Part shown: positions 4,575 through 64,000 of the stretch, piece by piece
How the letters are laid out: each line of letters opens with the position of its first letter
How positions within the stretch are numbered: position 1 is the stretch's first letter
Assembly: GCA_964510635.1 (NCBI GenBank)
Contig: CAZEBS010000007.1
Location: 22,386 to 86,385 of the forward strand
Direction: 5' to 3'
Origin: an uncultured Candidatus Bathyarchaeia archaeon
Lineage (GTDB): Archaea > Thermoproteota > Bathyarchaeia > Bathyarchaeales > Bathyarchaeaceae
Length of the DNA: 64,000 bases
The notes under the pieces: model-generated
What the model saw: the letters and a program-made list of their open reading frames with translations, nothing else
Told to the model about the DNA's origin: nothing
Database searches by the model: none
Translations under genes and position numbers: made by a program

Positions 4575-4930
4575 GCCTGCGTCGCTGTTTCTGCCAGAGG
4601 AACCATGAAAAACGTCAGAAACCAGATTTTTTGTTGTTTCAAAGTCTCCAGAGGATATAGCTTCTATTGCTTTGTCGATTTTCTGTTTTCTCTCCTTAAG
4701 CAGAAGAGCCCACTTGTGGCAATGTGCCTCATCAAACTTCGTTAAAGCTTCCCTCTCCGCTTGCGGTTTATGGCGTTAAGGCTTTGAGAGGTTATAAGTT
4801 CTTTGTTTTCTTTTATCTCGCGTTTTCTGGAACTTGATTTGGTTGCTCACGACAAGGATGTAAAGTAGACATTACTTAAAGTAAAGTTTATATTACATTT
4901 TACGATATAGGATTTACATAAGGAGCACCA

Positions 4931-5317: not shown

Positions 5318-5323
5318 CCACAC

Positions 5324-5542
5324 GTGGAAACCAAACTCAAGGTGTATCGTGCCATGCATAACCTGACCCAAGAAGACCTTGCGAAAGCAATTGGAGTAAC
5401 CAGACAAACGGTTATTGCAATGGAGAAAGGCAAGTATAATCCATCCTTAGAGCTTGCCTTCAAAATAGCACGATACTTCAAAGTCAAAATTGAAGACGTT
5501 TTCATCTACGAAAAACTAGACAGAGGTCACCAAATTGAATGA
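5324..5542 (+). CDS. XRE-family helix-turn-helix transcriptional regulator
   Basis: LKVYRAMHNLTQEDLAKAIGVTRQTVIAMEKGKYNPSLELAFKIARYF is a canonical Cro/C1 HTH. GTG start. Confidence 0.8.
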   Translation: METKLKVYRAMHNLTQEDLAKAIGVTRQTVIAMEKGKYNPSLELAFKIARYFKVKIEDVFIYEKLDRGHQIE

Positions 5543-6311
5543 AACACAACCAGCAGTTAAACTAGAAAATGTGAATAAAAGCTTCGGAAACATTCAAGCC
5601 GTCAAAAACTTGGACCTACAAATCGGCGCTGGAACTGTTTTCGGTTTTCTCGGACCGAATGGTTCAGGCAAATCAACGACAATGAAGATAATAATGGGGC
5701 TCTTGAAGGCAGATTCTGGAAACTTGAATGTTAATGGAATCGACGTTTCAAGGAATCCTTGGGACGTCAAGAAGATCGTGGGTTATGTTCCCGAAAGCCC
5801 CCGACTATACGAGTTTCTCACTGGACTCGAATATCTGGACTTCATAGCCGACGTCTATGGCTTAACCGCAGAAACAAAAAAGACCCGAATAGAAGAATAC
5901 CTCGACGCTTTTGACTTGGAGAACCGCGAAAACGAGATGATCAGCGGCTACTCCCACGGTATGAAACAGAAAATCGCAATAATTGCCGCTCTACTGCACA
6001 AGCCTAAACTGTTAATCCTCGATGAACCCCTAAGCGGCTTAGACCCCAAATCCGCCAGAATCGTAAAAGACCTAATTCACAGGTTAGCAAGCGAGGGCGT
6101 AACAACCATCATAAGCACGCACGTTTTAGAGATTGCAGACGCAGTTTGCGACAGGATAGCAATCATGTATCAGGGAGGCAAGCTTGCGGAAGGCAAACCC
6201 ATAGAATTACGTAAGGAAGCTGAGATGCCTGACTCGACCCTTGAAGAAATCTTTCTGAAACTAACAGGAACAAACGACATAAAAGATATTGTTGAAGCCC
6301 TCGGAAAATGA
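5535..6311 (+). CDS. ABC transporter ATP-binding protein
   Basis: Walker A GPNGSGKST, signature LSGGMKQK-like (YSHGMKQKIAI) and Walker B LLILDEP. Overlaps its neighbours by a few nt, which suggests an operon. Confidence 0.85.
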   Translation: MNETQPAVKLENVNKSFGNIQAVKNLDLQIGAGTVFGFLGPNGSGKSTTMKIIMGLLKADSGNLNVNGIDVSRNPWDVKKIVGYVPESPRLYEFLTGLEYLDFIADVYGLTAETKKTRIEEYLDAFDLENRENEMISGYSHGMKQKIAIIAALLHKPKLLILDEPLSGLDPKSARIVKDLIHRLASEGVTTIISTHVLEIADAVCDRIAIMYQGGKLAEGKPIELRKEAEMPDSTLEEIFLKLTGTNDIKDIVEALGK

Positions 6312-7948
6312 GGAATACCCCATTGAACTTTAAACTAATCCTGCAAATGGCAAAAATCTTAGCCCTCTCTTCAGTGAGAGCAAAAAGAACAGCAGGTTCT
6401 GTTCCATCAGGCTTCGCAAAATCTCCAAAAATAAACATCATCGTCTTTCTAATCGCCTTTCCAGCTGCAGCCTTTTTAGTCAGCAACTTCGTCAGCGCGT
6501 TCCTCAATGACCTGAACATAAGCCAGTTCTTTTTCCAGATCGCAATCTTTCTTCCATCTTTGATGACTTTGTTTTCAGTAATGTACGGCTTGCTCTTTGA
6601 GTTCAGTCAGTCCTCGTCGGTGGGCTCTTCAGACATCATTAATTGGCTTCCCATCAGGGCGATAGAGTTTGTTCTTGCTTCAGTGCTTTCTATGATCTAC
6701 TTTTTGGCGCCATTACTTGGGATGATTTTTGGCGCAGCCTTCGGAATCTCCCTTTACGTCAACATGCTGCCTTTAGGCTTGATCAGCATGATCTTTGGTG
6801 TCTTAGGAATGTTCTTGGGCGCTTTTTTAATTGAAATAATCCGAGCAATAACAAATCGTGTATCAGCGTCATTCTACAAGCACAGCGGCAGAACAGCTGT
6901 TACCATAAGAATGGTCGTATCCCTGCTTGTTATGGTGACCTTCATCCTTGTCACGAACGCCAATTTTCTGTTCACAATTCTTCAACAGTTCATGGGAGGA
7001 ATAGGAAACGCATGGTTCATACCCATACTCTGGCCGTCCCTAGCTGTAATGAACTACCTAACTGCAGAACACCTACAGTTGCTCATGTATACCTTAGGAA
7101 GCCTAGGACTTGCAGTAGCCTTTCTCTGGGCAAGCATAAAACTGCGGCAAAAATATTGGGTTCCTGCCCCCTTCTCCATTAAGCTGAAGCCATCCCAATC
7201 ATACACGCCAAAGCGAGGCTTTCTTGGAAGCCTAGGATTCACTTCTGCTGAAGCGGCTTTGATACGAAAGGATTTGCGGGGCTTAACTAGACGTAAAGAG
7301 ATGATTATGTGGATTGCCGTGCCCTTGGCCATAAGTTTAATCTCTCTTTTCTCTTTCTCGTCTTCATGGGAAACCGCCACAGCTACAATCGATAAACTAG
7401 CGGTGTTCTGGGGTCCTCTAATGGGCGTGTTTATGTTCGCATTTTACATGGCATTAACTGGCATAGGACAAGAAGGAAGCGCCTTTCTGAACTTACAGAT
7501 TATCCCATTGAAAGAGAAAGAAGTGGCGAAATCAAAGATTGCATTAGCACTTTTTCCGTCAGTTTGTGCTCTAGTTGCTTTAACAGCCGTAATGCAGCTA
7601 ATGCTGGCGCTTCGACCAGAAGCTCTAATCACAATAACTGTGACCCTGTTTGCAGGACTCCTCGAGTGCATTTTTGTTGGTTTGGCAGTAGGCAGCCGCT
7701 TCCCAGACTTTACTGAAGTTCCAAGGGCGCGCTTCATTGACCAGAAGGGTGTATGGTTAGGAATGGTGATTATCGCCGTGTGCATGGTCGTCACGTTCCT
7801 GCCCCCATTCCTCTACAGTTTCCACATCTTAGGAGCCTTCCATATCCTCATTGCCCCCGTTCTATCAGCAACGGCGTGCACTTTGATATGTTATGCCAGT
7901 TACAGAGCAACATTGGGCAGTTTACGGAAGCTCACGCGTCAAAGTTGA
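6308..7948 (+). CDS. Large polytopic permease partner of the ABC ATPase (ABC-2-like)
   Basis: 546 aa and highly hydrophobic, with many predicted TM segments. Its start overlaps the stop of the ATPase gene. Confidence 0.6.
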   Translation: MRNTPLNFKLILQMAKILALSSVRAKRTAGSVPSGFAKSPKINIIVFLIAFPAAAFLVSNFVSAFLNDLNISQFFFQIAIFLPSLMTLFSVMYGLLFEFSQSSSVGSSDIINWLPIRAIEFVLASVLSMIYFLAPLLGMIFGAAFGISLYVNMLPLGLISMIFGVLGMFLGAFLIEIIRAITNRVSASFYKHSGRTAVTIRMVVSLLVMVTFILVTNANFLFTILQQFMGGIGNAWFIPILWPSLAVMNYLTAEHLQLLMYTLGSLGLAVAFLWASIKLRQKYWVPAPFSIKLKPSQSYTPKRGFLGSLGFTSAEAALIRKDLRGLTRRKEMIMWIAVPLAISLISLFSFSSSWETATATIDKLAVFWGPLMGVFMFAFYMALTGIGQEGSAFLNLQIIPLKEKEVAKSKIALALFPSVCALVALTAVMQLMLALRPEALITITVTLFAGLLECIFVGLAVGSRFPDFTEVPRARFIDQKGVWLGMVIIAVCMVVTFLPPFLYSFHILGAFHILIAPVLSATACTLICYASYRATLGSLRKLTRQS

Positions 7949-13152: not shown

Positions 13153-14363
13153 AGTTTATGCCCGAAAGGGCGGAAAAAGACTCTGACCTTAAACTTCCCC
13201 CCGAGCTCTTAGACCTCTTCACAGGTTTTGATGACCTGGAGCTTGAAGACGTCGACATCGAAGTGGATGAACTGGAGTTTGCGTATCAGCCAGGGTTCCT
13301 GCCTGCAATCAAAAGGATGGTTGCAGCAAGAGCCAAGCCAACATCTCTCTTAGATGCACCCTTTGCGCTTCCTGTACAGAAGTATCTAGGGCAAATCGTT
13401 GAAGTCACCCTTGGAGCCACAAAGAGTCAGGGCGGAACCCGTGGAAGGTCTATTGCCATCGGAGGAGAAAAGTCTCCTGCCTTCTACACTTTCGAGAATC
13501 CGACACTTAACTCGCCAATAATCTCTCTTGACGTATTCGACCAGAAAGTACCCATCCCCAAAGCAGTTCGAACCAACTTCAACGATGCAATAGAAGACCC
13601 TGTTTCGTGGGCAAAATTTGCTGTTGACAAGTTTGGAGCACAAATGATTACTCTCCATCTGGTCAGCATTGATCCACTGAACCCTAAGCCTTCAACACCT
13701 GCGGAAGCCGCAAAAACTGTTGAAGATGTTCTTCAGGCAGTTGATGTGCCCCTTGTTGTAGGCGGGTGTGGTGATCCTGAGAAGGACTTGGCGGTCTTTG
13801 AGAAAGTAACTGCTGCAGCTGAAGGAGAAAGACTCCTAATCAGCACTGTTACGTTAGACATGGATATAGAAAAGTCAGCTAAACTGATCAAGAAGCATGG
13901 ACATGTTGCCTTGGCGTTCTCTCCAATGGACCTGAACCAAGCAAGAGAACTGAACAGGCGCCTTCTCGAATATCTGCCAAAAGAGCAAATCATAATGGAC
14001 ACAACAACAGCGGCGCTAGGATATGGACTTGACTACGCCTACACCATCATGGAACGTGCACGATTAGCTGGTCTGATGGGGGACCCCGAGCTTCAGCAAC
14101 CCATGTCATCTGGAACAACCAACGCTTGGGCAGCAAGAGAAGCATGGAAGAAGATGGACCCACAATGGGGCGCTAGAGAACTCCGTGGACCTTTATGGGA
14201 AGCAGTGACTGGCTTAACCCTGTTGCTGGCTGGCGTTGACCTGTTCATGATGTTGCATCCTGCAGCCGTCAGAACTCTCAGAAACACCGTCAAAAGATTG
14301 ACAGAAAAACCGGGCACCGCAGATGCTGCAAAGTTTGCTAACTGGGTGTCAGCGAAATTCTAG
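13149..14363 (+). CDS. cdhD: CODH/ACS delta subunit (corrinoid Fe-S protein small subunit)
   Basis: 404 aa with TIM-barrel-like pterin-binding-type sequence. Its position between cdhC and cdhE supports the call. Start is GTG 13149 or ATG 13158. Confidence 0.8.
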   Translation: MKFMPERAEKDSDLKLPPELLDLFTGFDDLELEDVDIEVDELEFAYQPGFLPAIKRMVAARAKPTSLLDAPFALPVQKYLGQIVEVTLGATKSQGGTRGRSIAIGGEKSPAFYTFENPTLNSPIISLDVFDQKVPIPKAVRTNFNDAIEDPVSWAKFAVDKFGAQMITLHLVSIDPLNPKPSTPAEAAKTVEDVLQAVDVPLVVGGCGDPEKDLAVFEKVTAAAEGERLLISTVTLDMDIEKSAKLIKKHGHVALAFSPMDLNQARELNRRLLEYLPKEQIIMDTTTAALGYGLDYAYTIMERARLAGLMGDPELQQPMSSGTTNAWAAREAWKKMDPQWGARELRGPLWEAVTGLTLLLAGVDLFMMLHPAAVRTLRNTVKRLTEKPGTADAAKFANWVSAKF

Positions 14364-27971: not shown

Positions 27972-29294
27972 ATGATGACATTAGATCCAGCAACTGAAGC
28001 ATGGGCAGCGTTCCAGCAGAACTTCTTCGTAGGATGGGCACCCGTAGCCATCTTCATCATGGCAACTGCAGGTTTCGCCCTGTTCTATGCAGGAATGGTC
28101 CGCAAAAAGAACGTTACCCACACGATACTTCAAATCAACGTAGGATGGACACTAGCCTTTGTGGTCTACTTCCTCATCGGCTTCCCACTCGCATACTATG
28201 TATCGGCTCCAGTACTCGGGTTACCACAGTTCGTTCCCACAATAGCTAACCCACTGCCGCCATTGCTGTCTGAAACAGGCGCTTATGGCATAGCCGCAAG
28301 CCCCTCTGGCCTCGGTGACCTGGCAACATGGTTCAAAATGGCAATGTTCGCTATCACAGTCGTTGGCATCGTTCCCGGAGGCATGGCAGAACGTGACAAG
28401 TTCTGGGGCTGGATCCTAGCAACAATAGGTATCGCAGGTTTCATCTATCCCGTGGTTGAACACTGGGTTTGGGGTGGAGGCTGGCTATCTGAACTTGGTT
28501 TCATAGATTACGCAGGTTCAGGTGTAGTCCACCTTGTTGGAGGAACACTTGCACTAACTGGAGCGTATGTCATTGGTCCAAGGATCGGAAAGTTCGTCGG
28601 TGATAAAAAATTACCAAGAACATTCTTCGGACACAGTATTCCGCTATCTGTAATCGGTGCATGGCTACTGGCCTTCGGATGGTTCGGCTTCAACGTCGGC
28701 TCAAGCGTAGCCGGAGATGCAATGACAATCAACGTAGAACTCGCATGGGTCTCACTAACCACAGCAATGTGCATGGCTGGAGGCATGTTCGGTGCAGCAA
28801 TTACCTCAAGGGGTCACGTGCTAACAAGCATGGTTGGCTTGCTTGCAGGCGCTGTCGCAATATGTTCCGGAGCCGCAATCGTTCATCCACTAGCAGGCTT
28901 CGTAATCGGCATAATCGCGGGAGTAATCACAACCTTCACCATCGGATTAATGGAACACAAGCTGCACATCGACGACGCCTTGGGATGTTTCCCAGTTCAC
29001 GCAGCATGTGGAATCTGGGGACTACTCGCAACAGGAATCTTCGGTTACGCAGCTCTTGGAGCACATCCAATCTATGGATTCGCCGACATAGGAACATGGG
29101 TCAGCCAAATCGGAATTCAGGCAATCGGTGCAGTATCAATACTCGCCTGGGCGGGTGCAATGGGACTGATAATGTTCAGTGTGTTGAAGAAGCTTAACCT
29201 GCTAAGGGCTACAAGAGACCAAGAACTATACGGACTGGACATCGCAATACACAAGACGCTAGCATACCCCGAAGACATGATGGAAGACAAATAA
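27972..29294 (+). CDS. amt: Ammonium transporter
   Basis: 440 aa, ~11 TM. Carries AGFALFYAGMVRKKN, DYAGSGVVHLVGG, and the twin-His region FPVHAACGIWG typical of Amt/MEP. Confidence 0.9.
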   Translation: MMTLDPATEAWAAFQQNFFVGWAPVAIFIMATAGFALFYAGMVRKKNVTHTILQINVGWTLAFVVYFLIGFPLAYYVSAPVLGLPQFVPTIANPLPPLLSETGAYGIAASPSGLGDLATWFKMAMFAITVVGIVPGGMAERDKFWGWILATIGIAGFIYPVVEHWVWGGGWLSELGFIDYAGSGVVHLVGGTLALTGAYVIGPRIGKFVGDKKLPRTFFGHSIPLSVIGAWLLAFGWFGFNVGSSVAGDAMTINVELAWVSLTTAMCMAGGMFGAAITSRGHVLTSMVGLLAGAVAICSGAAIVHPLAGFVIGIIAGVITTFTIGLMEHKLHIDDALGCFPVHAACGIWGLLATGIFGYAALGAHPIYGFADIGTWVSQIGIQAIGAVSILAWAGAMGLIMFSVLKKLNLLRATRDQELYGLDIAIHKTLAYPEDMMEDK

Positions 29295-29302
29295 ACTCCA
29301 TA

Positions 29303-29338
29303 GCGCCATAACGGCGCAACCCTTTTTCTTCTTTTTTC
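29303..29338 (+). terminator. Hairpin plus T-run terminator after amt
   Basis: GCGCC-ataac-GGCGC (29303-29317), then aacccTTTTTcTTcTTTTTT. Confidence 0.5.
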
Positions 29339-29425
29339 CAAAATTTCTTCTCGAAGACATCTTTCCGAAGCTCTTAAATATCCTTTTAATGATGCTAAAC
29401 TTCAATCTGGTGAGTTGATAATCCT

Positions 29426-32167
29426 TTGGTCTCTCAATCAGCTAGAAGTAAACTAAAAATTGCCTTTTTTGTTAACATAATAATTGTTGCTGTCGCAATT
29501 CCTAGCTACTTCTATGCTGGGTCACAAATTCCCGACCCCGCCCACTTCCAAGTGACCAATTTGGTCCTTGATTCTGATTTGATTCAAGTTGGGGAATCGG
29601 TGCAAGTGTCTGTTAACGTAACTAATCTTGGAGACCAGACGGGTAATCATTCTATAACTCTAACTATTGATGGTGAGCCAATAACAACTAAAACGGTTCA
29701 GCTTTCAGGGTCAGAAAGCGTAGCAGTGGATTTCACTGCGACAATACTGACTGAAGGCAATCACACTGTTCAGGTGGGAGATTTAATCGACTCGGTCAAA
29801 GCTACGTTGGATGCACCATCCAGACCAGCTGAAATGCGAGTAACTGATTTGGGAGTCAGCCGAGCCGTTGCTGAGGCTGGAGAAACCATAGTTGTTTCGG
29901 CTACGGTAACCAACATTGGAGATGAGAGCGGCAGTTTTGATTTGGACCTTTTTGTTAATGACGAAAAACGGGACACCCAAAGCATTCAACTCGAGAGTAA
30001 AGAGACCACAACCATACAATTCGAAGTCACTGAAGACGCTGAAGGAACTTACGTGGTTAAGGTGGGCGATTTAACTAAATCCTTCGAAATCAGTTCTAAT
30101 GCCCAGCCTGCTAAACCAGCCGAGTTCCAAGTAACCGACTTAACAATTAATCCTTCCTCAGTAATGTCTGGTGAAAGTGTGGCAATCTCGGTTAAGGTAA
30201 CTAATGTTGGAGAGGAATCTGGAACCTATATTGTGAACCTCGAAATTGACGGCACAGCAGCAGACACAAGAGAAGTCACATTGGCTGGCGGCTCAACCAA
30301 GATTGCAGAATTTAGTGTAACTGAAACAACCGCCGGCACCCACACTGTTGAAGTCGGCGGTCAATCAGGAACTTTCACTGTTGAAGCCCCAGTTGTTGCA
30401 TCAGACAAAATCGACTTGCTGAGGATTTTTGTGAACCCCTATGAAGTGACGGAGGGGGATACAGTAATCATCATAGTAAAAGCCAACAACATGGCAAACG
30501 AGGAGGCCGTCCTTGGTGCAAGGCTTCTTGTCGCTGGCGAAGTTGCAGACACAAAGACTGCTACCTTGCCTCCAGGTGAATCTGAAGAAGCCCTTGAATT
30601 CACTTGCACAGCGGGTCCAGCAAACGCTGAAACAGTAAAAGGTTACTCCGTCGAGGTGATAAACCTCGGTAATCAAAGCGACAAATTGAAAGGTTATTTC
30701 ACAGTTGTCCCTGACGGTTTCCACACTTTTTCATTCTCTACAAATGCTATTGGTTTGGAATTCACTATTAACGGCGTGACTGAGCCTGTGCCATATAGTA
30801 AACTCTTGCCAGAGGGAACCTACACCATAACCATACCTGATGGCATTGAAGGCGGAGGCACCTTCTGGAACTTCACCAACTGGAATGATGGACCAACAGA
30901 CCTCACTAGAACCATAATCTTAGACCGTCGGATTTCTCTTATCGCCAATTTCATGAACTGCAAATCTTGTCCTTCATTATATGTTTGGAATGGAGCCGAA
31001 TATGTATACACCGCCGAAATCTCCGACGGCACAGGATACTTAGGAATTTTTGACTACTTCCGCGAAGACGGAAGTCTGTCCTTCCTTTATAGTGTTCCAT
31101 GGGACTACGTCAAGTTAGATGCGAGCGCACTCCAACTGAATGATGGATACTATGACATGACTATCAGACAAAACTGGGATGAAATCGCCTATGTGGATTC
31201 TGCATCATTAGTGATTGTGGAGCACTCGCCTGATGTGGATGTGTATTCAACTAAAGCCACATACCTGTATGAGCCTGAAGGACAAGGAACAATCTATACT
31301 GTCAGCAAAAATCCTGATTCCCCCGTCTCCTGCGTCAACGGGACAGGACATGATGTTCTGCCTTTAGTCTTAGAACGTGACGGAATCACCACCCTAGGCA
31401 ACGAATTCACATGGGACACCCTAGAGCTAAACTTAGGCGACCTCTCTGACGCAGAAGAAATCAAGCTCGTAGTCGCTGGAACAATAATCTACTCTACAGG
31501 TGAAGAACAGGGCGCATGGGCTGGACAGTTCTGGGACAAACCTGGTGAGCAGCCGTTTCCGCCTCCCTACATGGAAGTTAAGGACGCTGAAGGCAACTGG
31601 GTTCCAGTTCCAGATAACAGGCAATTCCCGTTGCTGGATGTTACGCCAGAATGCTTCGTTGTGAACTTGACTGGAGTCTTCCCGACGGATGATTACTCCC
31701 TCAGGATACATACTTTCTTCAACACCAGATTCGATTACATAGGAGTGGACACAACATCCCAGCAGGATGTAACGATCCGAGAGGTGACAGTTTCCTCTGC
31801 AACTTTGTCCCAAGCTTTCGTAGCCGAGTCCACATCAACAGGCAATTTCACCCGATACGGGGACGTAACCGAGCTAATGGGCGCTCCAGACGACATGTTT
31901 GTGATAATGCGTCAAGGCGACGAAATACGGGTCATGTTCTCCGCTGATGTGGATGCTGTTCCAGAAGGCATGGAACGCGACTTCTTCTTGTTTGCCAGTG
32001 TCTGGTTCAAAGTTGATGGGCTTCCCTATGTGCCCTTCACTGTAGACCCGTTGCCCTTCCATGACATGACCTGCTTCCCATACCCGCAAACAGAAGGCTA
32101 CCCCTACGATGCAGCCCATCTAACCTATCTCGCAGAATACAACACTAGAATAGTAACTGCCCCATAA
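29426..32167 (+). CDS. Large N-terminally anchored cell-surface protein with CARDB-type repeats
   Basis: 913 aa with an N-terminal TM (IAFFVNIIIVAVAIPSYF). Three clear and one degenerate ~98-aa repeats of the type FQVT(N/D)L...G(E)SV..SV.VTN.G..(S/T)G.......(I)DG........V.L..G.S.....F.VT....G.H.V.VG, roughly 29546-30640. The C-terminal ~450 aa are of unknown function. TTG start. Confidence 0.65.
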   Translation: MVSQSARSKLKIAFFVNIIIVAVAIPSYFYAGSQIPDPAHFQVTNLVLDSDLIQVGESVQVSVNVTNLGDQTGNHSITLTIDGEPITTKTVQLSGSESVAVDFTATILTEGNHTVQVGDLIDSVKATLDAPSRPAEMRVTDLGVSRAVAEAGETIVVSATVTNIGDESGSFDLDLFVNDEKRDTQSIQLESKETTTIQFEVTEDAEGTYVVKVGDLTKSFEISSNAQPAKPAEFQVTDLTINPSSVMSGESVAISVKVTNVGEESGTYIVNLEIDGTAADTREVTLAGGSTKIAEFSVTETTAGTHTVEVGGQSGTFTVEAPVVASDKIDLLRIFVNPYEVTEGDTVIIIVKANNMANEEAVLGARLLVAGEVADTKTATLPPGESEEALEFTCTAGPANAETVKGYSVEVINLGNQSDKLKGYFTVVPDGFHTFSFSTNAIGLEFTINGVTEPVPYSKLLPEGTYTITIPDGIEGGGTFWNFTNWNDGPTDLTRTIILDRRISLIANFMNCKSCPSLYVWNGAEYVYTAEISDGTGYLGIFDYFREDGSLSFLYSVPWDYVKLDASALQLNDGYYDMTIRQNWDEIAYVDSASLVIVEHSPDVDVYSTKATYLYEPEGQGTIYTVSKNPDSPVSCVNGTGHDVLPLVLERDGITTLGNEFTWDTLELNLGDLSDAEEIKLVVAGTIIYSTGEEQGAWAGQFWDKPGEQPFPPPYMEVKDAEGNWVPVPDNRQFPLLDVTPECFVVNLTGVFPTDDYSLRIHTFFNTRFDYIGVDTTSQQDVTIREVTVSSATLSQAFVAESTSTGNFTRYGDVTELMGAPDDMFVIMRQGDEIRVMFSADVDAVPEGMERDFFLFASVWFKVDGLPYVPFTVDPLPFHDMTCFPYPQTEGYPYDAAHLTYLAEYNTRIVTAP

Positions 32168-56223: not shown

Positions 56224-56299
56224 TGGTAGCCCGGGGGAGATTCGAACTCCCGTCAGGGGCTCCAGAGGCCCCCATGATTGACCGCTACACCACCGGGCT
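56224..56299 (-). tRNA. tRNA-Gln (anticodon CUG), CCA encoded
   Basis: The minus strand reads AGCCCGG-UG-GUGUAGCGGUCAAUCAU-G-GGGGC-CUCUGGA-GCCCC-UGAC-GGGAG-UUCGAAU-CUCCC-CCGGGCU-A-CCA. It has a 7-bp acceptor stem with A1:U72, a 5-bp anticodon stem, anticodon CUG, and the T-loop UUCGAAU. Length is 76 nt. Confidence 0.85.
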
Positions 56300-56584: not shown

Positions 56585-57502
56585 ATTTCCCATAGAACAA
56601 ACGAAAAATGTCCAGAATGTGGAAGTCCTAATCTTATCCACGACTATGATACGGGAGAAACCATCTGCGGAGGCTGCGGTCTGGTTGTTCGGGAACAAAT
56701 GATGGACAAAGGTCCAGAATGGCGAGCCTTTACTCAAGAAGAAAAAGCCTCCAGAAGCCGTGTAGGCGTACCCACATCATATTCTGTTCATGACAAAGGA
56801 TTATCCACAGCCATAGGACGAGTGGACAGGGACGCCTTCGGACGCAAACTTCCTCTCTCCACGAGACTGCAGATGTGGAGACTACGGAAGTGGCAGATAC
56901 GATCACGTGTTCACTCTTCTATAGACAGGAATCTTGCCCAAGCCATGGCAGAACTGGATCGTCTTTCCGACAAATCATACATTCCAGGTCCAGTAAAAGA
57001 GAAAGCCGCAATCATCTACCGCAAGGCTTTAGACAAGGGTTTGGTGCGGGGCAGATCAATTGCAGCCATCGCCGCTGCCTCACTGTATGCTGCCTGCAGA
57101 ACCACTGGAACCCCCAGAACTCTACGGGAGATAGCTGAAGCCAGTTTTGTGGACAAAAAAGATGTGGCTCGCTGCTACCGTCTGCTACTCAGAGAACTGA
57201 ACGTTCAGATGCCAATCGCTAACCCTCTCACATACGTTTCTAAAATCGCTGAGAGAACAGGCATATCAGGTCAGACTCAGGGTCATGCAATCAAGATTCT
57301 TCATGAAGCTAGGAAAAAACGTGCAGCCGCTGGAAAAGATCCTATGGGGTTGGCTGCTGCTGCATTGTATATTGCGTGTCTTGTGAAGAATGAGAAAAAG
57401 ACTCAGAAGGATATTGCTGAGGCTGCTGGCGTAACTGAGGTTACTGTCCGGAACAGGTACAAGAGTTTGAGAAGACAACTGGGCATAGAGTTGCCCGATT
57501 AG
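56585..57502 (+). CDS. tfb: Transcription initiation factor B (TFIIB homologue). The start codon is non-canonical or unresolved.
   Basis: Zn ribbon CPECGSPNLIHDYDTGETICGGCGLVV (from 56609), B-reader/linker DKGPEWRAF, and two cyclin-fold repeats (RGRSIAAIAAASLYAACR / PMGLAAAALYIACL). The first in-frame ATG (56699) lies after the ribbon. I provisionally place the 5' end at the in-frame ATT at 56585. See findings. Confidence 0.85.
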   Translation: MSHRTNEKCPECGSPNLIHDYDTGETICGGCGLVVREQMMDKGPEWRAFTQEEKASRSRVGVPTSYSVHDKGLSTAIGRVDRDAFGRKLPLSTRLQMWRLRKWQIRSRVHSSIDRNLAQAMAELDRLSDKSYIPGPVKEKAAIIYRKALDKGLVRGRSIAAIAAASLYAACRTTGTPRTLREIAEASFVDKKDVARCYRLLLRELNVQMPIANPLTYVSKIAERTGISGQTQGHAIKILHEARKKRAAAGKDPMGLAAAALYIACLVKNEKKTQKDIAEAAGVTEVTVRNRYKSLRRQLGIELPD

Positions 57503-57735
57503 CTCTCTTTTTCGTCTTTTGTTTTTGTTTGCTCCATCACTATTGGTCCAGTGTAGCCGCATTCTGGACAAATGTATTGGCTAGGAGCTATTCCGTACAG
57601 TCCAGGGTATGTGCTGAGGCTGCTGAGGTATATTTTTTTGCTTCCACATTTGGGGCAAATGTTGATTGTTTCTTCGCCTCGTTCTTTATGTTTCAGTTCC
57701 TTGATTACTTCACGAAAATCGGATAGACGTCCCAT
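57499..57735 (-). CDS. Hypothetical double zinc-ribbon protein
   Basis: 78 aa with CPKCGS...CPECG. Convergent with tfb, with a 4-nt overlap. Confidence 0.45.
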   Translation of the reverse strand: MGRLSDFREVIKELKHKERGEETINICPKCGSKKIYLSSLSTYPGLYGIAPSQYICPECGYTGPIVMEQTKTKDEKES

Positions 57736-57750
57736 CTTGAATCTCTCAGC

Positions 57751-58059
57751 CTATTGGACTTCAACGTTTTCTTCTGGATACCCTTGACGGATAAGGTATT
57801 CCCTTACTTTGTCTCGGTGATCACCCTGCAGAATGATTTCCTCATTTTTTGCGGTTCCGCCGCAGGCACAGAAAGATTTGAGTTTTTGAGCTAACCTGCT
57901 CAGGTTTGCTTCTTTTTCGTTGATGCCGTCGACGATGGTTACCGCTTTTCCCCATTTTCTTGTTTCTAAGCGCACTCGTATTCGTTGTTGCTCTTTCCCT
58001 ATTTCTTCGCAGACACAAATGTCTGAGGGTAGTCCACAGGTTGGGCAAATTTCAGCCAT
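57751..58059 (-). CDS. Translation initiation factor aSUI1 (eIF1 homologue)
   Basis: MAEICPTCGLPSDICVCEE...IRVRLETRKWGKAVTIVDGI...LKSFCACGGTAKNEEIILQGDHRDKV is the SUI1 fold with the archaeal N-terminal Zn knuckle. I prefer the ATG at 58059 over the track TTG at 58068. Confidence 0.85.
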   Translation of the reverse strand: MAEICPTCGLPSDICVCEEIGKEQQRIRVRLETRKWGKAVTIVDGINEKEANLSRLAQKLKSFCACGGTAKNEEIILQGDHRDKVREYLIRQGYPEENVEVQ

Positions 58060-58089
58060 GATACTCAACTAGAAAGGTCCACATTGGGG

Positions 58090-58102
58090 TATATAAGATT
58101 TT
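58090..58102 (-). promoter_or_regulatory. Putative BRE/TATA of the aSUI1 promoter
   Basis: The minus strand reads gAAAATCTTATATAcccc. The TATA (CTTATATA, plus 58090-58097) ends 30 nt upstream of the ATG at 58059, preceded by a purine-rich BRE-like AAAAT (58098-58102). Confidence 0.5.
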
Positions 58103-58111
58103 CAATGTTAT
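58103..58111. repeat. Target-site duplication, left copy (CAATGTTAT)
   Basis: Identical 9-mer in direct orientation at 63766-63774. Each copy abuts the outer end of a terminal inverted repeat. Confidence 0.8.
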
Positions 58112-58135
58112 GATACTGTTAAGTTATTTGTGATG
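58112..58135. repeat. Left terminal inverted repeat GATACTGTTAAGTTATTTGTGATG
   Basis: A 24/24 match to the reverse complement of 63742-63765 (CATCACAAATAACTTAACAGTATC). Confidence 0.85.
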
Positions 58136-58236
58136 AACTAAAGTCTATTGAACCTGTTAACCATTGGGATTTTTTTATTGTGTGACCTTAAGCTTAAATT
58201 TGGTTAATGTAAATAGGACATAAAGGGTATTGTCTG

Positions 58237-58785
58237 TTGGAAGAGAAAGTTCCAGAGAAAGATGTTCTTTGGCGTTTGTATGACGTTGCTTTGAATTTAT
58301 ACAAGTACGTGCATTCAGATGTTTGGGTTGGGCAGAAATATTACACCACTTTGAACATTGGAATAATAAGCATAGCCATTGCGCTGTTAGGGATTCCCCA
58401 CATTCTAGAGGGACCTTATTGGGTCGTAATAATACTCTTTGCAATAGGTATGATAACATCTATATTTGGTTATTTTAGCATTAGGAAATTGCGAGAAGCT
58501 TTTCTGAGTAACATCGCATTTAAAACCATCGTAGAATACTTGTTAAAGGATGAACTCGAATTAAAGAAAAATGATGTATCAGAAAAGCATCAATTGACAC
58601 CATTTTATAGCCTTCCAGAAGAGGATGTTTCTAGTATTCTTAAGTGTCCTGACCTTTGGAAAAAACAAAACATTTTCAGACTTGGTGGTGTTAGTTGTTT
58701 CTTCCTTTTGCTTCAACTAATTTTTGTTATAGTTAACCTTTTTGGGATTTTATTGACTCTCTTGCTGTATTTTGGTTATGTTTGA
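58237..58785 (+). CDS. Hypothetical membrane protein (transposon passenger)
   Basis: 182 aa, TTG start, 3-4 TM (IGIISIAIALLGI, VVIILFAIGMITSIFGYF, and C-terminal VSCFFLLLQLIFVIVNLFGILLTLLLYF). No recognised family. Confidence 0.45.
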   Translation: MEEKVPEKDVLWRLYDVALNLYKYVHSDVWVGQKYYTTLNIGIISIAIALLGIPHILEGPYWVVIILFAIGMITSIFGYFSIRKLREAFLSNIAFKTIVEYLLKDELELKKNDVSEKHQLTPFYSLPEEDVSSILKCPDLWKKQNIFRLGGVSCFFLLLQLIFVIVNLFGILLTLLLYFGYV

Positions 58786-58843
58786 TTAGGTTACGCAAGC
58801 TTTTTGATGGACTAAACTGTCTATCAAACAAGTAACTATGCCT

Positions 58844-60556
58844 TTATTTTGGAACAAGAGCCCATGTTTTCATGGCTATTTTTGCTAGTTGATTTTGTCG
58901 TTCATTAATGTCTTTTGCATCCCACAATGTTTCGTGGTTTGTCATGTCATAGATGCCCTTTGTGATGAGAAGTGGGGATTTTTTAAATTCTACTCGTTTA
59001 GATTGGAAATTAGAATTACCAAAAGTTGAATTAACCTTTGTATTTAGCAATGTCATGTTTCCAATTCTTTTGTGATATGACTCGAAAGTTTCAACATCAA
59101 TATGTGACCAGTTGCTTCCTTTTTCTCGTGGTAAAATATGCTCCAGATTAAGAAAGCTAGTGTCTTCAGAAGGTACCAGTTCTGGCTCTTGGTCTTTCCG
59201 AAGTTGACGTTCCATCGCACGTAAATAATACCTTGCAAGACTGTGTCGAGATACTCTAGCAGTTTCAAATGCTAACTTAAACTCGCCATCTCTTGGAATA
59301 ATATTTGATAAAGCATTCAATAATTCGTTCGTGGTCTTAATTTCACCTAAATATACATCATGTGCTTTTTCTCCATAGGCATCTTCTAATGCACCACCTC
59401 GCATTCCACCCGCTATCAAGAACCTCACCGTCCAAGAAACAAAAGAACGAAACGCTTTTTCCAATTCTTTTGGTTCAAAATGTTGAGCAACAGCAAGCAT
59501 TAAGGGCTGTATTTGGCGTACTTTTAACTCTCTCATTATGTTTATAGCGGTTGGAATTTTTGTTGAAAGACCACTCCATCTTGGATGGGTTGGAGTTACT
59601 ATTGCAACATAAGTGTCGGCGTAATCAGAAATCTTTTCTAGAAAACTGAGTGTGTTGGTTTTACCCCGTACTTCTTTCTTTATTTTTTCGAAAATTTCCT
59701 TTTCTCTTGTTGGACCAAACAAGGTGATAGCTAAATGTCGTAAATACGTCATTACCATGTCTTCTGCCCATGCTGTTTCCAATATGTTTGTCATCTTAGA
59801 CCATTTTGATTGTGCCTCGTTCACTCGAGTACCCGCCTCGCTAAAAAGATAATTCTTCACCAAGTCTGCTTGAGACGTTTTCAGTCCTCTGTCGTTGAGC
59901 GTTTCAAACATCGTAAAAGCGCTTACTTCATCTGGAACTGTAAGAAGAATAATTGTTGCTTTGTTTTCAATGAATTTTGACCATGCAATTAGTGTGTGTT
60001 TTATGTTTTCATCATTCAGTCCACGTATTATGTCTTGAACCAATGTTTCTGCTTTTTGGGCAGCAATATTTATTCTTCTGTGAGATTCTTTTTTCTCTTC
60101 TATATTTTGCCTTTCAGGTCTATTAGGAAGTGCAATAATGCGATTTTTAAAATATTCATTATCATCCATGTTAAGAGTTAATTTTGGAACCACTGTCTCT
60201 TGTTCGAGGTCATATTCACAAAGAAATTGACTCTCAATAGATGTTTGGGCTCGTTCTTGATTTTTGTGAAAATAGTAATCTCTAATTGCAGCCAGCAAAA
60301 TAGTAGTAGTGGCTAATCTCTGTTGCCCATCAACTACAACAGGTATATCTTCAGTTCCTTTTGAAACAACAATTGTACCCAAAAAATAACTTGGCAAGTT
60401 ATTTGTTATAGCACTTCGAAAATCTTGGAATAATTCATCAATTTGTTTATCTCCCCAAGAATACTCACGTTGATTTAGTGGAATCTTAAGCTGTTGCGCT
60501 TTTAACAAAGCGCCAATGCCTTTAAATTCGAAAGGTGGAGGTTGCATAACGTGCAT
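58844..60556 (-). CDS. DUF262 plus DUF1524 protein (GmrSD-like type IV restriction / ParB-like NTPase plus His-Me nuclease)
   Basis: N-terminal IPLNQREYSWGDKQIDELFQDF and VVDGQQRLATTTILLAAI are the DUF262 motifs. C-terminal NLEHILPRE...IGNMTLL...N is the DUF1524 HNH-like motif. 570 aa. Confidence 0.8.
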   Translation of the reverse strand: MHVMQPPPFEFKGIGALLKAQQLKIPLNQREYSWGDKQIDELFQDFRSAITNNLPSYFLGTIVVSKGTEDIPVVVDGQQRLATTTILLAAIRDYYFHKNQERAQTSIESQFLCEYDLEQETVVPKLTLNMDDNEYFKNRIIALPNRPERQNIEEKKESHRRINIAAQKAETLVQDIIRGLNDENIKHTLIAWSKFIENKATIILLTVPDEVSAFTMFETLNDRGLKTSQADLVKNYLFSEAGTRVNEAQSKWSKMTNILETAWAEDMVMTYLRHLAITLFGPTREKEIFEKIKKEVRGKTNTLSFLEKISDYADTYVAIVTPTHPRWSGLSTKIPTAINIMRELKVRQIQPLMLAVAQHFEPKELEKAFRSFVSWTVRFLIAGGMRGGALEDAYGEKAHDVYLGEIKTTNELLNALSNIIPRDGEFKLAFETARVSRHSLARYYLRAMERQLRKDQEPELVPSEDTSFLNLEHILPREKGSNWSHIDVETFESYHKRIGNMTLLNTKVNSTFGNSNFQSKRVEFKKSPLLITKGIYDMTNHETLWDAKDINERQNQLAKIAMKTWALVPK

Positions 60557-60560
60557 TCAA

Positions 60561-60785
60561 TCATCCCATCTTTATTTTTTTAAAAAACTCTATTGGATGT
60601 CCAACGGCTTCCAAATCTTTAATGGCTGCTTGTCTTAGTCTTTGACGTGCCCATGTAGACAGGGGTGTTCCTAAAATTTTAGCTGCGTCTTGAAATGTTT
60701 GCTTTTCGTCACTGTCAAGTCTTATCAGTAGAGTTTCTATCTTTTTGTCTTCTGTCTTTTTTGTTGGTCTTCCTCGTCCAGCCAT
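60561..60785 (-). CDS. Ribbon-helix-helix protein (DUF1778/CopG-like antitoxin-type), upstream partner of the GmrSD-like gene
   Basis: GRPTKK...TLLIRLDSDEKQTFQDAAKILGTPLSTWARQRLRQAA follows the RHH pattern. A perfect SD GGAGGTGA lies 6 nt upstream. Its stop is 4 nt before the GmrSD-like start. Confidence 0.6.
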   Translation of the reverse strand: MAGRGRPTKKTEDKKIETLLIRLDSDEKQTFQDAAKILGTPLSTWARQRLRQAAIKDLEAVGHPIEFFKKIKMG

Positions 60786-61022
60786 TTCTTTTCACCTCCA
60801 AATATTTGTATATTTAACTAATATACTTTTTCTAACTCAAAAGTTTATTGTATAATTTTTAGGCATACAAAAAAGGGATTTTATCACTTTATTTTGATGT
60901 TACCCTTTATTTTGTGTTCCCATTCTTCTTGAGTGATTACACCTTTTTCTTCCAACAATTCAACGAGACTAGTAAGCATTGTATCTAACAAATCAATTTC
61001 AGATGCTAAATCACGTTTGATT

Positions 61023-61187
61023 TTATTCTTCACATTTACCACCTTTATTGAGATAACCTTTCTCAGATAACCAATTCATAATGATTGTGCGAAGTGTATC
61101 TGAGTACCCTTCACCAAGTGTACCTATAAGGTCTTTGTCTATGAGGTCAACGATATTGGCTGGTAAGGCTACGAGTATTTTTCTCAT
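61023..61187 (-). CDS. CopG-type ribbon-helix-helix protein (54 aa), translationally coupled to the transposase
   Basis: Not in the track. My translation is MRKILVALPANIVDLIDKDLIGTLGEGYSDTLRTIIMNWLSEKGYLNKGGKCEE. Its ATG (61187-61185) overlaps the transposase TGA (61186-61184) as ATGA. Confidence 0.5.
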   Translation of the reverse strand: MRKILVALPANIVDLIDKDLIGTLGEGYSDTLRTIIMNWLSEKGYLNKGGKCEE

Positions 61188-62092
61188 TTTGCTATCACCA
61201 CCATCTTGTTCTTTTCTTTGTTATTATTTTGGTTTGTGACTCTAGCCAATAGCTCTGCTTCATATTTTGTGGCTTCCTCAATCAACCCCTTCCAGTTGTC
61301 AGGTGCGTTTGTTCTTGCAGCTTGAGCAGGAGTTTTTCCAATGCTTTGATGTTCTCTTACGAAGTTGTAGTGAACTGTGTATCCTTCTAGTATTGCGTTT
61401 GTGGATTCAAAGCCTTTTAGTCCTCTCATGGGCTTTGTTCGGTCTTTGAGTGTACCGTGTAGTCGTTCTACGATGTTGTTTGTTTCTCTTGTTCTGATTC
61501 CTACTCTTTGAACTAGTTCTACTTTGTCGGCTTTATATCTGGAATAGAAAACTTTGTTGAAGGCTCTTTGGTATGAATTGCATCCATCAACGAAAACTGC
61601 TCTAAGTTTTACTTTGCTTTGGTCTAGTCCTTTTTGGAAGATTGCGATTGTGTCTTTTAGAGTTCTAGTGTTTGAGAGGTGTGAGCTTACTATGAATTTG
61701 GTGTCTTCGTCGATCATTTCCCAGAACCATACATTGCGTCCTTCGCAACGGACAACTGTTTCGTCTTCATGCCATAGACCCGAAAGCTGAGGAACTAATG
61801 TGTTAACGTATTCCTTGACTAGAATTGAGTATTTCTTTATCCAGTCCAGAATTGTTACTTGGCTCACGGTTTTTCCGAATATCTGCTTTAGGTTTCTTTG
61901 GGTTTTGCGGAGAGATAAACCGTCAAAGTATAGATTAAGTGCTGTTACTATGATGTGTTTGTCAGTTCTCATTTTGGCGAATTTTCCGTTCATGTAGAAG
62001 CGTTTCTTACATACTTTGCATCTGTAGAGTTGTTTGCCTTTGACTTTGCCGTCTTTCACGAGTTTTTTGGAGCCACAATATTTGCATTGCAT
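61184..62092 (-). CDS. DDE transposase with N-terminal zinc ribbon and HTH (IS1/IS6-like by motif)
   Basis: MQCKYCGSKKLVKDGKVKGKQLYRCKVCKKRF (CxxC...CxxC), the HTH region LSLRKTQRNLKQIFGKTVSQVTILDWIKKY, and a DDE core WHEDETVV...FVDGCNSY...NNIVERLHGTLKDRTKPMRGLKGF. I start at the ATG at 62092. The track start at 62152 adds 20 unlikely residues. Confidence 0.8.
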   Translation of the reverse strand: MQCKYCGSKKLVKDGKVKGKQLYRCKVCKKRFYMNGKFAKMRTDKHIIVTALNLYFDGLSLRKTQRNLKQIFGKTVSQVTILDWIKKYSILVKEYVNTLVPQLSGLWHEDETVVRCEGRNVWFWEMIDEDTKFIVSSHLSNTRTLKDTIAIFQKGLDQSKVKLRAVFVDGCNSYQRAFNKVFYSRYKADKVELVQRVGIRTRETNNIVERLHGTLKDRTKPMRGLKGFESTNAILEGYTVHYNFVREHQSIGKTPAQAARTNAPDNWKGLIEEATKYEAELLARVTNQNNNKEKNKMVVIAK

Positions 62093-62209
62093 TGGTATCT
62101 CACAGCTATACTGTAAGTAATATGTGGTATATATAGCTTGTGGGTATACCACAAGACATCTAGAAACATGATAAAATAGTTAAAGCAATAAACAGAAACA
62201 GATAGTAGT

Positions 62210-63739
62210 ATGACATCTCAAAGCTACTTTCAACCCAACACTATCTACTGTGGCGATTGTCTTGAAGTAATGACAAACCACATTCCTTCCAACATCATCG
62301 ATTTAATCTATGTAGACCCACCATTTGGAAGCGGAGAAGAATATGAAATTGTATTCAAAGACGGTGTTGAAGTACGCCATTTTACAGACCGATGGATTGG
62401 TGGAAAAGAGGGATATATTAATTGGATAAAACCCCGCATAAGAGACATTCATAGAGTTCTAAAAGATACTGGTTCATTCTATCTCCATTGCGATTATCAT
62501 TTAAATGCTTACTTACGGATTGCTTGTGATGAAATTTTTGGTGAAGCAAATTTCAATAATGAAATAATATGGAAAAGAAAAGATGCGCAAAGTTCTGTTA
62601 AGAAATACGGTATCAATAATGATACAATCCTTTTCTATTCAAAAACAAAGGATTTTACATTCAACAAACTTTACACGCCTCTAAGCAAAAAGACCCAAGA
62701 CACATGGTATAAAAAAACTGAAGTGGCAACCAAAGATTTAGTGAATAAAAGAGGAAAAAAAATTCCAAAAGGTACAGTTAGACGATATAATTTAGGTGAT
62801 GTCTCAGCTTCTGGTTCTAGAGTAGGAACACGAGCACATTACAAGTGGAAAGGGAAATTTCCCCGAAATGGGTCGCATTGGCGATATGTAAAAGAAAAAA
62901 TGGAAGAACTTGAGAAAGAAGGTCGTCTTTATCATTCAAAATCTAATACACCATATGAAAAACGATATTTGGATGAGTCTAAAGGAACCACTCTACAGAC
63001 TATATGGACTGACATTCCAATGTTGAGAGGAATATTCAAACATACAAAGAAATCTGAATATCTAGGATACCCAACTCAAAAACCCGTTACGTTGCTTGAA
63101 AGAATAATTGAAGCTTCTAGCAATGAAGGTGATATTGTTCTTGACCCAATGTGTGGATGTGGTACTGCCGTTGTTGCTGCTCAAAATTTAGGTAGAAATT
63201 GGATAGGTATTGACATTAGTCCTACGGCTTGTAAGATTATGGTTAAACGATTGAGAAGCAAAAATGTGCAAATAGGTATTGACGATATAGTTGATTTGCC
63301 AAGACGGATTGATGCTATTAAAAAAATGGTGAATTTAGACCCGATTGAATTTCAAAATTGGGTTTGTGAAAGACTTGGTGCTGTTTCAACAACAAGAAGG
63401 GGAAGAAAACCTAAAGCAGATGGCAATGTTGATGGATGGATTATGAGCAGTATTCCAATACAAGTTAAAGGTTCGGAAAGTATTGGATACTCAGAAATTG
63501 AACGGTTTGAAAAAACAGTTGAAAAACGTAAATTGAAGAACGGTTTGTTTGTGGCGTTCTCTTTCAGCAAGCTAGCATATGAAGAAGCAATGCGAGCAAG
63601 AAACGAGGATGGAATTGATATTGACTTAATAGAGTTGGAAGAACGCCTTACTCCAAATCCTAAATTTTCAGGGCATCCCGAATATCACACGGTTCTTACA
63701 TCTAAAATGACAAAAAGAGTGTGGGGAGAAAAAACCTAA
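62210..63739 (+). CDS. Beta-class N6A/N4C DNA methyltransferase fused to a C-terminal Mrr-like (PD-(D/E)xK) domain
   Basis: Motif IV IYVDPPFG lies near the N-terminus and motif I VLDPMCGCGT lies later, which is the beta-class order (N6_N4_Mtase). The C-terminal FQNWVCERLGA...ADGNVDGWI...IQVKGS..IGYSEIERF matches the Mrr_cat pattern (D-G-x-D-G ... Q-x-K). The stop lies 2 nt before the right TIR. Confidence 0.8.
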   Translation: MTSQSYFQPNTIYCGDCLEVMTNHIPSNIIDLIYVDPPFGSGEEYEIVFKDGVEVRHFTDRWIGGKEGYINWIKPRIRDIHRVLKDTGSFYLHCDYHLNAYLRIACDEIFGEANFNNEIIWKRKDAQSSVKKYGINNDTILFYSKTKDFTFNKLYTPLSKKTQDTWYKKTEVATKDLVNKRGKKIPKGTVRRYNLGDVSASGSRVGTRAHYKWKGKFPRNGSHWRYVKEKMEELEKEGRLYHSKSNTPYEKRYLDESKGTTLQTIWTDIPMLRGIFKHTKKSEYLGYPTQKPVTLLERIIEASSNEGDIVLDPMCGCGTAVVAAQNLGRNWIGIDISPTACKIMVKRLRSKNVQIGIDDIVDLPRRIDAIKKMVNLDPIEFQNWVCERLGAVSTTRRGRKPKADGNVDGWIMSSIPIQVKGSESIGYSEIERFEKTVEKRKLKNGLFVAFSFSKLAYEEAMRARNEDGIDIDLIELEERLTPNPKFSGHPEYHTVLTSKMTKRVWGEKT

Positions 63740-63741
63740 TC

Positions 63742-63765
63742 CATCACAAATAACTTAACAGTATC
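63742..63765. repeat. Right terminal inverted repeat CATCACAAATAACTTAACAGTATC
   Basis: Exact reverse complement of 58112-58135. Confidence 0.85.
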
Positions 63766-63774
63766 CAATGTTAT
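63766..63774. repeat. Target-site duplication, right copy (CAATGTTAT)
   Basis: Identical to 58103-58111, in direct orientation, abutting the right TIR. Confidence 0.8.
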
Positions 63775-64000
63775 TCGGGTTGATTTTTGGACAGTTTTTA
63801 ACGTTAAAAGCTGTTGCTGGATTATGATATTTGGGTTTTTGACGGATGGTTTTGTTTGTAATGTTTCTTCCTTTAGCTGTGGTTTCCATGAAGTTAGGCA
63901 CCATTGGCTTGGTTTCTCAGGCCTGTGGACAAGACTGTATCGTGAACAGCCGTAACTCATGGGGCTTCAGGTCACTTCGTATCTTCGACCACTATCATTG

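Follow-up and report, generated by a model that had tools for sequence, protein, structure and literature searches.

Members of the IS6 family are short insertion sequences (IS) of 0.7-1.8 kb with a single open reading frame (ORF), GG-tipped inverted repeats (IRs) of 15-20 bp with cTGTt and caaa motifs, and 8-bp target site duplications (TSDs); they form cointegrates and move cargo as pseudo-compound transposons, and ISDsp3 is the only member recorded with a passenger gene (PMC7986276). According to a 2019 survey of mobile elements in thaumarchaea, DNA transposons with passenger genes had not been detected in archaea (PMC6563490), and archaeal Tn7-like elements have been reported since (bioRxiv 10.1101/2025.07.27.667033). 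Here, we analyzed a 64-kb stretch of contig CAZEBS010000007.1 from an uncultured Bathyarchaeia archaeon, called the window in the following, in whose numbering the coordinates of the element are given. The segment 58112-63765, which comprises 5654 bp and seven ORFs, is most probably an intact unit transposon or 'transporter IS' in this genome that belongs to an archaeal branch of the IS6/IS26 group. The data support its membership in a large Bathyarchaeia branch of IS6 that consists of modular cargo transposons with two arms, a three-gene core and a 9-bp TSD.

The two terminal inverted repeats (TIRs) of the element agree at 24 of 24 positions when one is read as the reverse complement of the other, with the likeness extending to 29 nt at 93%, and the same 9-mer directly abuts both arms (Table 1). 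A preliminary description of this DNA had claimed perfect 24-bp TIRs and a 9-bp TSD, and both claims hold on recount. It had also called the bounded segment AT-rich, in agreement with a GC content of 0.361 within its ends against 0.450 for the remaining window. Even with up to three mismatches allowed, the 24-mer occurs at only these two sites in the 64 kb, as does the 14-nt TIR core with up to two mismatches, and 100 shuffles gave no match to the 24-mer. In an independent Logan assembly (L001, SRR14802572), window positions 57142-61057 with the left junction recur at 100% identity, which excludes that this junction arose from mis-assembly of the metagenome-assembled genome (MAG). A 14-nt inverted repeat of the right TIR at 60396-60409 lies inside the GmrSD gene and was treated as a chance match.

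Table 1. Features of the element and its left flank in window coordinates.
Feature	Position	Strand	Remarks
aIF1/SUI1 gene	57751-58059	-	left flank; homologues annotated as Bathyarchaeota
TSD, copy 1	58103-58111		CAATGTTAT, the same 9-mer directly outside both TIRs
TIR, end distal to the transposase 5' end	58112-58135	+	GATACTGTTAAGTTATTTGTGATG; likeness continues to 58140
Predicted membrane protein, 182 aa	58237-58785	+	ORF; Pfam 8xMP 20.6 bits, under the cutoff of 30
GmrSD-type (DUF262 + DUF1524) type IV restriction nuclease, predicted, 570 aa	58844-60556	-	Pfam, PADLOC
Small protein, possibly ribbon-helix-helix, 74 aa	60561-60785	-	4-nt gap upstream of the GmrSD gene, same strand
C2, predicted helical hairpin, 52 aa	60884-61042	-	overlaps C1 by 20 nt, +1 frame
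Core block (transposase promoter region, transposase, C1, C2)	60917-62196	-	77-89% to relatives (blastn)
C1, predicted beta-alpha-alpha, 54 aa	61023-61187	-	start overlaps the transposase stop by 4 nt
IS6-family DDE transposase with N-terminal C4 zinc finger, predicted	61184-62152	-	hidden Markov model matches
Methyltransferase-Mrr fusion, predicted, 509 aa	62210-63739	+	divergent from the transposase
TIR, transposase-upstream end	63742-63765	-	24/24 complement of the other arm
TSD, copy 2	63766-63774		CAATGTTAT

The transposase has 322 aa when read from the GTG at 62152, and 302 aa in the database-called form from the ATG at 62092. It scores 141 bits against the NCBIfam model NF033587 transpos_IS6 (cutoff 125) and 75 bits against the Pfam domain DDE_Tnp_IS240 (PF13610). 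Its N-terminus matches an IS1/IS1595-type zinc-binding domain (NF050000, 38.8 bits, cutoff 28), whereas the full-length IS1 model NF033558 reached only 65.4 bits and thus stays under its cutoff of 100, so that the protein does not qualify as an IS1 member. Residues D130, D189, E229 and K236 show no variation among 57 aligned relatives and coincide with the catalytic DDE-K residues of IS26, with which many other conserved positions align as well. Among annotated PLSDB entries, bacterial IS6 transposases such as that of ISCpe7 come closest (~32% identity, E 1e-26, tblastn), and a comparison with the sequences of the PDB gave no match. Together, these similarities support the assignment of the transposase to the IS6 family.

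Relatives of this transposase were collected in scans of GTDB genomes (63 loci) and JGI metagenomes (80 loci), with one metagenome scan recording 282 of them, and elements were delimited by a script that seeks inverted repeats around each transposase and were labelled with L-numbers. This yielded 63 non-redundant TIR-bounded elements of 1.9-8.0 kb with a median of 3972 bp. The genome loci lie nearly all in Bathyarchaeia MAGs, in addition to a few Nitrososphaeria, one Methanolobus vulcani B1d and two Methanoregula, and each MAG holds one or two of them. Common to the family is the terminal repeat GATACTGTTAAGTT, with the terminal consensus GATACTGTTAAGTTatTTG, and the inner part of the TIR varies with the transposase clade. 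Elements L002, L006 and L073, whose transposases are 92-96% identical, are bounded by the same 24-mer as the window element, although they carry other cargo and the TSDs CGCCTAGAG, AAGCTTAGC and ATTATGTGT. The earlier reading of the locus as a passenger-carrying DDE transposon is supported by this recurrence of the same TIR around relatives in dozens of contigs, each time with a different 9-bp TSD, and the TIR does not behave as a dispersed host repeat since it always accompanies this transposase.

An exact 9-bp TSD flanks 61 of the TIR pairs, no two of which are alike, and one more pair has a TSD with a single mismatch. The target logo is two-fold symmetric and reads TAA, 6 nt, C-N7-G, 6 nt, TTA, with TAA at positions -8 to -6, C and G at positions 1 and 9 of the TSD, and TTA at +16 to +18. 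The target site in the window matches the left half of this preference. Where the flanks were long enough, insertions lay outside long open frames in 30 of 39 cases. Four or five distant relatives with 35-62% transposase identity, including L044, L046, L056 and L061, have TSDs of 8 bp. These four named elements measure 3.5-7.8 kb, and the Methanoregula pair L056 and L061 also has GG-tipped IRs; cargo-carrying elements of IS6 type may thus have a wide distribution among archaea outside Bathyarchaeia. One further element (L030:7914-13328) sits in a near-perfect palindrome (CAACTCTTAGAGTTG), which fits the two-fold symmetric preference seen across the 63 sites.

These properties set the element apart from described IS6 members in several respects. 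It shares with IS26, IS257 and IS6100 a homologous DDE transposase and the cTGTt motif, which stands in the TIR at the IS26 offset (positions 5-9). In contrast, its TIR is tipped by GA and lacks caaa, with some relatives starting with GGTTCTGTT, and its TSD has 9 bp instead of 8, as do all 61 clean TSDs of the clade, 8 bp being found in distant relatives only. With 5.65 kb (4 kb in the family median) it far exceeds the 0.7-1.8 kb of IS6 members, it has a core of three genes instead of one ORF, and it carries cargo to either side of the transposase within one element rather than between directly repeated IS copies. As the window holds a single transposase gene and no second copy, the locus is not a compound or pseudo-compound transposon. 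Passengers between its own IRs, one transposase and a TSD are instead the features of a transporter IS or unit transposon.

To close relatives, among them L002, L006, L073, L008 and L075, the core block and the TIRs are the only homology detected by blastn. All-against-all clustering of ORFs identified the transposase, C1 (~55 aa) and C2 (~53 aa) as the core of the family, which persists at 47% transposase identity. C1 was found in 38 of the 63 elements and C2 in 36 by ORF call, an antisense ORF having been picked in others, and both are strongly conserved. The C2 frame is +1 to that of C1, and the two ORFs overlap by 17-29 nt, in 27 of 29 elements. In several relatives (P0245-P0250) they are fused to one protein of ~101 aa, and JGI labels some fused homologues as CopG/Arc/MetJ family. 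AlphaFold2 (AF2) models show a strand and two helices for C1 and a two-helix hairpin for C2, with pLDDT values of 66 and 91, respectively. Based on the beta-alpha-alpha topology and the names of the JGI homologues, C1 is probably a DNA-binding protein of the ribbon-helix-helix (RHH) type, and C1-C2 might act as a DNA-binding accessory or regulator of transposition. The overlap of the two genes could reflect translational coupling or programmed frameshifting. The preliminary description had listed C1 among the passengers as a CopG-like RHH protein. However, its conservation with the transposase across the family makes it, like the adjacent 52-aa ORF C2, a core partner of the transposase and not cargo, which leaves four passenger genes. 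Both proteins contain the motif DTLxxxxxxLxEKGxL; an internal duplication is not claimed, as hhalign returned a probability of only 6.9%.

The two large passengers of the window element are both predicted to have restriction functions. The 570-aa protein matches GmrSD_N (PF03235) with 108.9 bits, GmrSD_C (PF07510) with 84.8 bits and the PADLOC model HEC-06 with 581.9 bits, and its predicted order of an N-terminal DUF262 domain (ParB-like NTPase) and a C-terminal DUF1524 domain (HNH-like nuclease) fits the definition of GmrSD. The 509-aa fusion combines an N6_N4_Mtase domain (Pfam, 168 bits; PADLOC MTase_II, 221.6 bits) with a C-terminal Mrr-type PD-(D/E)xK domain (Mrr_cat, 26.7 bits, cutoff 21), in which a D...QxK motif can be recognized by eye (NVDG...IQVK). 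Some of its paralogues match NA-iREase1, a model for inactive restriction endonucleases (REases). The 74-aa protein shows weak matches to DUF6290 and RelB antitoxins, all under the respective cutoffs, and the 182-aa membrane protein has no match in PADLOC and is a singleton among the cargo of the family. The gene content given earlier, with a membrane protein, an RHH gene next to GmrSD and a methyltransferase (MTase)-nuclease fusion, is therefore retained except for the number of passengers, which had been put at five or six and is four.

The arms of the element also occur separately in other elements. L009 is colinear with the window element over the left TIR, the MTase-Mrr gene and the core (83%, blastn), and L010 over the core, the RHH gene and the GmrSD gene (69%, blastn). 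As the former matches the left arm and the latter the right arm, the window element is a mosaic of arms that are found apart. MTase-Mrr genes of the same cluster (C5, left cargo) are paired with at least seven different right arms. How arms may be gained is suggested by two relatives. L006 (3278-8899) contains a complete inner element (3278-7442) that ends in an extra, internal right TIR at 7419-7442; beyond it come another MTase-Mrr gene, the second of the composite, and at 8899 the third TIR. Since the 9-bp TSD matches at the outer TIR, this composite moved as one unit, and an inverted copy of the MTase-transposase intergenic region (33/35 nt) upstream of the second MTase-Mrr gene identifies that gene as the arm of another element. 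In L009, two right-end TIRs of different subtypes (…TTTGTGATG and …TTTGACCCAAC) abut at 13646-13698. Both arrangements point to nested insertion and the use of alternative ends as a way in which arms are captured.

A census covered 149 cargo proteins with a minimum length of 124 aa, encoded by 61 elements, and shows that the annotated fraction is rich in restriction-modification and toxin-like genes. It comprises 19 DNA methyltransferases (12 N6_N4, 4 N6_Mtase/Eco57I-like, 2 D12 and 1 EcoRI-type), nuclease domains of the types Mrr_cat (7, all in MTase-Mrr fusions) and NA-iREase1 (5), two GmrSD proteins and one SacI-type REase. Further annotations are UPF0175 (5), DUF3800 (4), PIN, Fic and NYN (3 each), HATPase_c_3 (2, beside a radical-SAM protein), a Schlafen-like protein and a ParA-like ATPase (1 each). 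The N6_N4-type MTase, to which the 509-aa fusion of the window belongs, is the commonest annotated cargo and present in 12 of the 63 elements. The commonest cargo overall, C3 (~230 aa, e.g. L122:9332-10024), is found in 21 of 63, mostly adjacent to a TIR; it has no annotation and may be a semi-core accessory or a so far unknown defence gene. Other recurrent clusters without annotation are C6, C9, C12, C13, C14 and C19. C6-C7-C8 and C9-C12 recur as unannotated modules.

Whole elements including their cargo have moved to new sites in this family. L078 and L079 (3443 bp) are 100% identical to each other but have different flanks, and the same is true for L108 and L109 (4921 bp). In addition, six metagenome contigs (L073, L082, L123, L130, L138 and L148) each consist of one element with ~100-127 bp of flank on either side, which looks like the signature of a branch in the assembly graph at a polymorphic or repeated insertion. 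The preliminary description considered the window copy as possibly still mobile; this is plausible, with the movement itself seen in the relatives L078/L079 and L108/L109 rather than in this copy. In L006, the genes next to the transposon code for an ammonium transporter and a 771-aa protein; their orthologues in the window, 28452-29294 and 29387-30404, lie side by side. The L006 region has ~8 kb extra that consist of two genes and the 5.6-kb transposon, so that window 28452-30404 is 'empty' in regard to this region.

Transposition might proceed as follows. The transposase would bind both identical 24-bp TIRs, cleave their 3' ends and join them to the target at a 9-bp stagger, from which the duplication of CAATGTTAT would result. 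In analogy to IS26, the route would be replicative: donor and target would fuse as a cointegrate that is resolved by homologous recombination of the host. While the chemistry was earlier left as cut or copy in general, a replicative cointegrate is what would be expected from an IS6-family transposase. All DNA between a TIR and the core is cargo; throughout the family, TIRs and core are constant and the arms are exchanged. Arms could be shuffled by crossovers in the shared core, as expected from homologous recombination of cointegrates between different elements, or by nested insertion followed by the use of a more distant TIR.

Several observations weigh against the view of the element as an intact IS6-type carrier of defence genes. 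The element departs from the IS6 definition in its 9-bp TSD, in tips of GA instead of GG, in its multi-gene core and in its size, and due to these departures the extrapolation of the IS26 mechanism is uncertain. About 12 TIR pairs come without a TSD; they would fit recombination between copies, but mis-assembly of metagenomes across the repeat would look alike. C1 and C2 match neither Pfam, NCBIfam or PADLOC models nor, by profile search, the PDB, and Foldseek with their AF2 models gave hits of E > 4 only. Some 50% of the cargo in the family is unannotated; the earlier term 'defence-loaded' thus applies to the annotated fraction only. Neither a second copy of the exact 5.65-kb element nor a conspecific empty allele was found, and exact look-ups of the transposase (322-aa form, 302-aa form and P0001) in the contig index had no hit. 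The reconstructed empty site, …GATTTTCAATGTTATTCGGGTTG…, had been predicted before, but the exact 23-mer had no match in the metagenome and genome contig collections. As a fallback, we compared SUI1 orthologue loci. In L151, whose SUI1 is 95% identical, the orthologous site is uninterrupted, which speaks for an insertion in the window: blastn of the reconstructed empty site spans the junction at 79% identity, and L151 reads GGAACATTG opposite the reverse complement of the window TSD, ATAACATTG. The evidence for an empty site hence comes from a related species at ~79% DNA identity and not from a conspecific allele.

The same element might instead move by cut-and-paste or by copy-out/paste-in, with arms shuffled solely by ordinary recombination and nested insertions. 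The 9-bp TSD, C1/C2 and the zinc finger separate the clade from IS26, TSDs are clean in 61 of ~74 copies and copy numbers are low with 1-2 loci per MAG, all of which would agree with such a route. On the other hand, the transposase scores above the cutoff of the IS6 model, its catalytic core can be aligned with that of IS26, and TSD-less copies together with mosaic arms are what cointegrate resolution predicts; we consider a non-replicative or copy-out route possible but doubtful. A question that is independent of the chemistry is whether the window copy is a fixed relic that looks intact but is immobile and kept for its defence genes. There is one copy in 64 kb at one known insertion site, L001 having it at the same position, and the 23-mer search revealed no empty allele. 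Still, the TIRs (24/24), the TSD (9/9) and the DDE-K residues are intact, all seven ORFs are of full length compared to their homologues, and close relatives have moved recently, which makes a relic unlikely.

Could the 24-bp repeats belong to another, non-autonomous element or a host repeat with a short IS6 element nested inside? With the transposase in the middle of the element, each TIR is over 1.5 kb away from it, an arrangement that is uncommon for an IS and would agree with nesting. However, no TIR-like sequence flanks the core, merely 57 bp lie between the transposase and the divergent MTase gene, and the same TIR occurs with this transposase clade at more than 60 loci. The inner part of the TIR tracks the transposase clade, and the smallest members of 1.9-2.3 kb (L037, L048 and L040) have the same type of ends and a 9-bp TSD. 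With no inner TIR, a small IS nested in a larger element was rejected, and the broader idea of foreign repeats around an IS6 element appears highly improbable. Next to no weight can be given to repeats that arose by chance around a genomic island: the shuffles never matched the 24-mer, the exact flanking 9-mer has a chance of ~4e-6, and the pattern recurs 61 times, which refutes coincidence. Overall, a unit transposon of IS6 descent accounts best for the segment.

Transporter IS or unit transposons with passengers are known among IS1595, IS66 and ISL3 members. The window element resembles them in its IS-type transposase, its own IRs and TSD and its unrelated passengers, and its zinc finger is like that of IS1/IS1595, whereas its cargo is multi-gene, two-armed and highly combinatorial. 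The ISMhu11 subgroup of IS1 in ISfinder reaches sizes of up to ~4.6 kb. Restriction-modification (RM) genes that are bounded by repeats are regarded as selfish, self-stabilising cargo. Here, in contrast, the RM gene makes up one of the exchangeable arms in a defined transposon family that brings its own transposase and TIRs. Tn7-like elements (archaeal examples: bioRxiv 10.1101/2025.07.27.667033) and casposons also shuttle restriction-modification and defence genes in archaea, but the present element depends on a single IS6 DDE enzyme rather than on TnsABC or Cas1, has no dedicated targeting proteins, is much smaller and generates a 9-bp TSD. Our literature searches, in which ISfinder was not queried, turned up neither a description of IS6-type transposons with cargo in Bathyarchaeia nor a mention of ISMhu11; judged from this literature, the family is apparently undescribed.

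Bathyarchaeia have been reported to lack CRISPR-Cas entirely (PMC12669027), which makes a transposon-borne pool of innate defence genes in this group more interesting. Tentatively, Bathyarchaeia could circulate such genes on a dedicated, lineage-wide IS6-derived family in which the core serves as recombination hub and, owing to the identical TIRs, any TIR-proximal block of genes as a portable arm. C1/C2, as a split RHH-like protein, could then be a new accessory of transposition, with their overlap and fusions possibly reflecting a regulated frameshift that controls it. The family represents an abundant archaeal IS6 branch turned into a modular cargo carrier with rules of its own, namely a 9-bp duplication, a symmetric target and a three-gene core. 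It offers a concrete vehicle for the exchange of defence genes in a major uncultured lineage of sediments and a natural system in regard to how IS26-type transposases handle large elements, and the uncharacterised cargo families C3, C6, C9, C14 and C19 are candidates for new defence functions. An 835-bp sequence (L049:9838-10672), whose ends form perfect inverted repeats of 110 bp with this type of TIR, contains a transposase fragment only and may be a deletion derivative or a relative that resembles miniature inverted-repeat transposable elements.

The insertion lies ~45 bp upstream of the aIF1/SUI1 gene, and further along the left flank genes for a zinc-ribbon protein and TFB follow. A tRNA-Gln(CTG) gene at 56224-56299 on the minus strand is 1.8 kb away from the element and is not the integration target. 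Within the right flank (63775-64000), all six frames are interrupted by stops, and Rfam gave no credible hit. Relatives whose SUI1 shows 93-95% identity have a gene with an AsnC_trans_reg domain ~100-180 bp upstream of SUI1; no such gene is visible in the 226 bp of right flank within the window. Judged from window 58086-58111, the insertion is ~10 bp outside a TATA-like sequence, CTTATATA (minus strand), which is situated ~27-34 bp upstream of the SUI1 ATG and is likely the SUI1 promoter box. The element would thereby border on the aIF1 promoter, with a possible effect on aIF1 expression.

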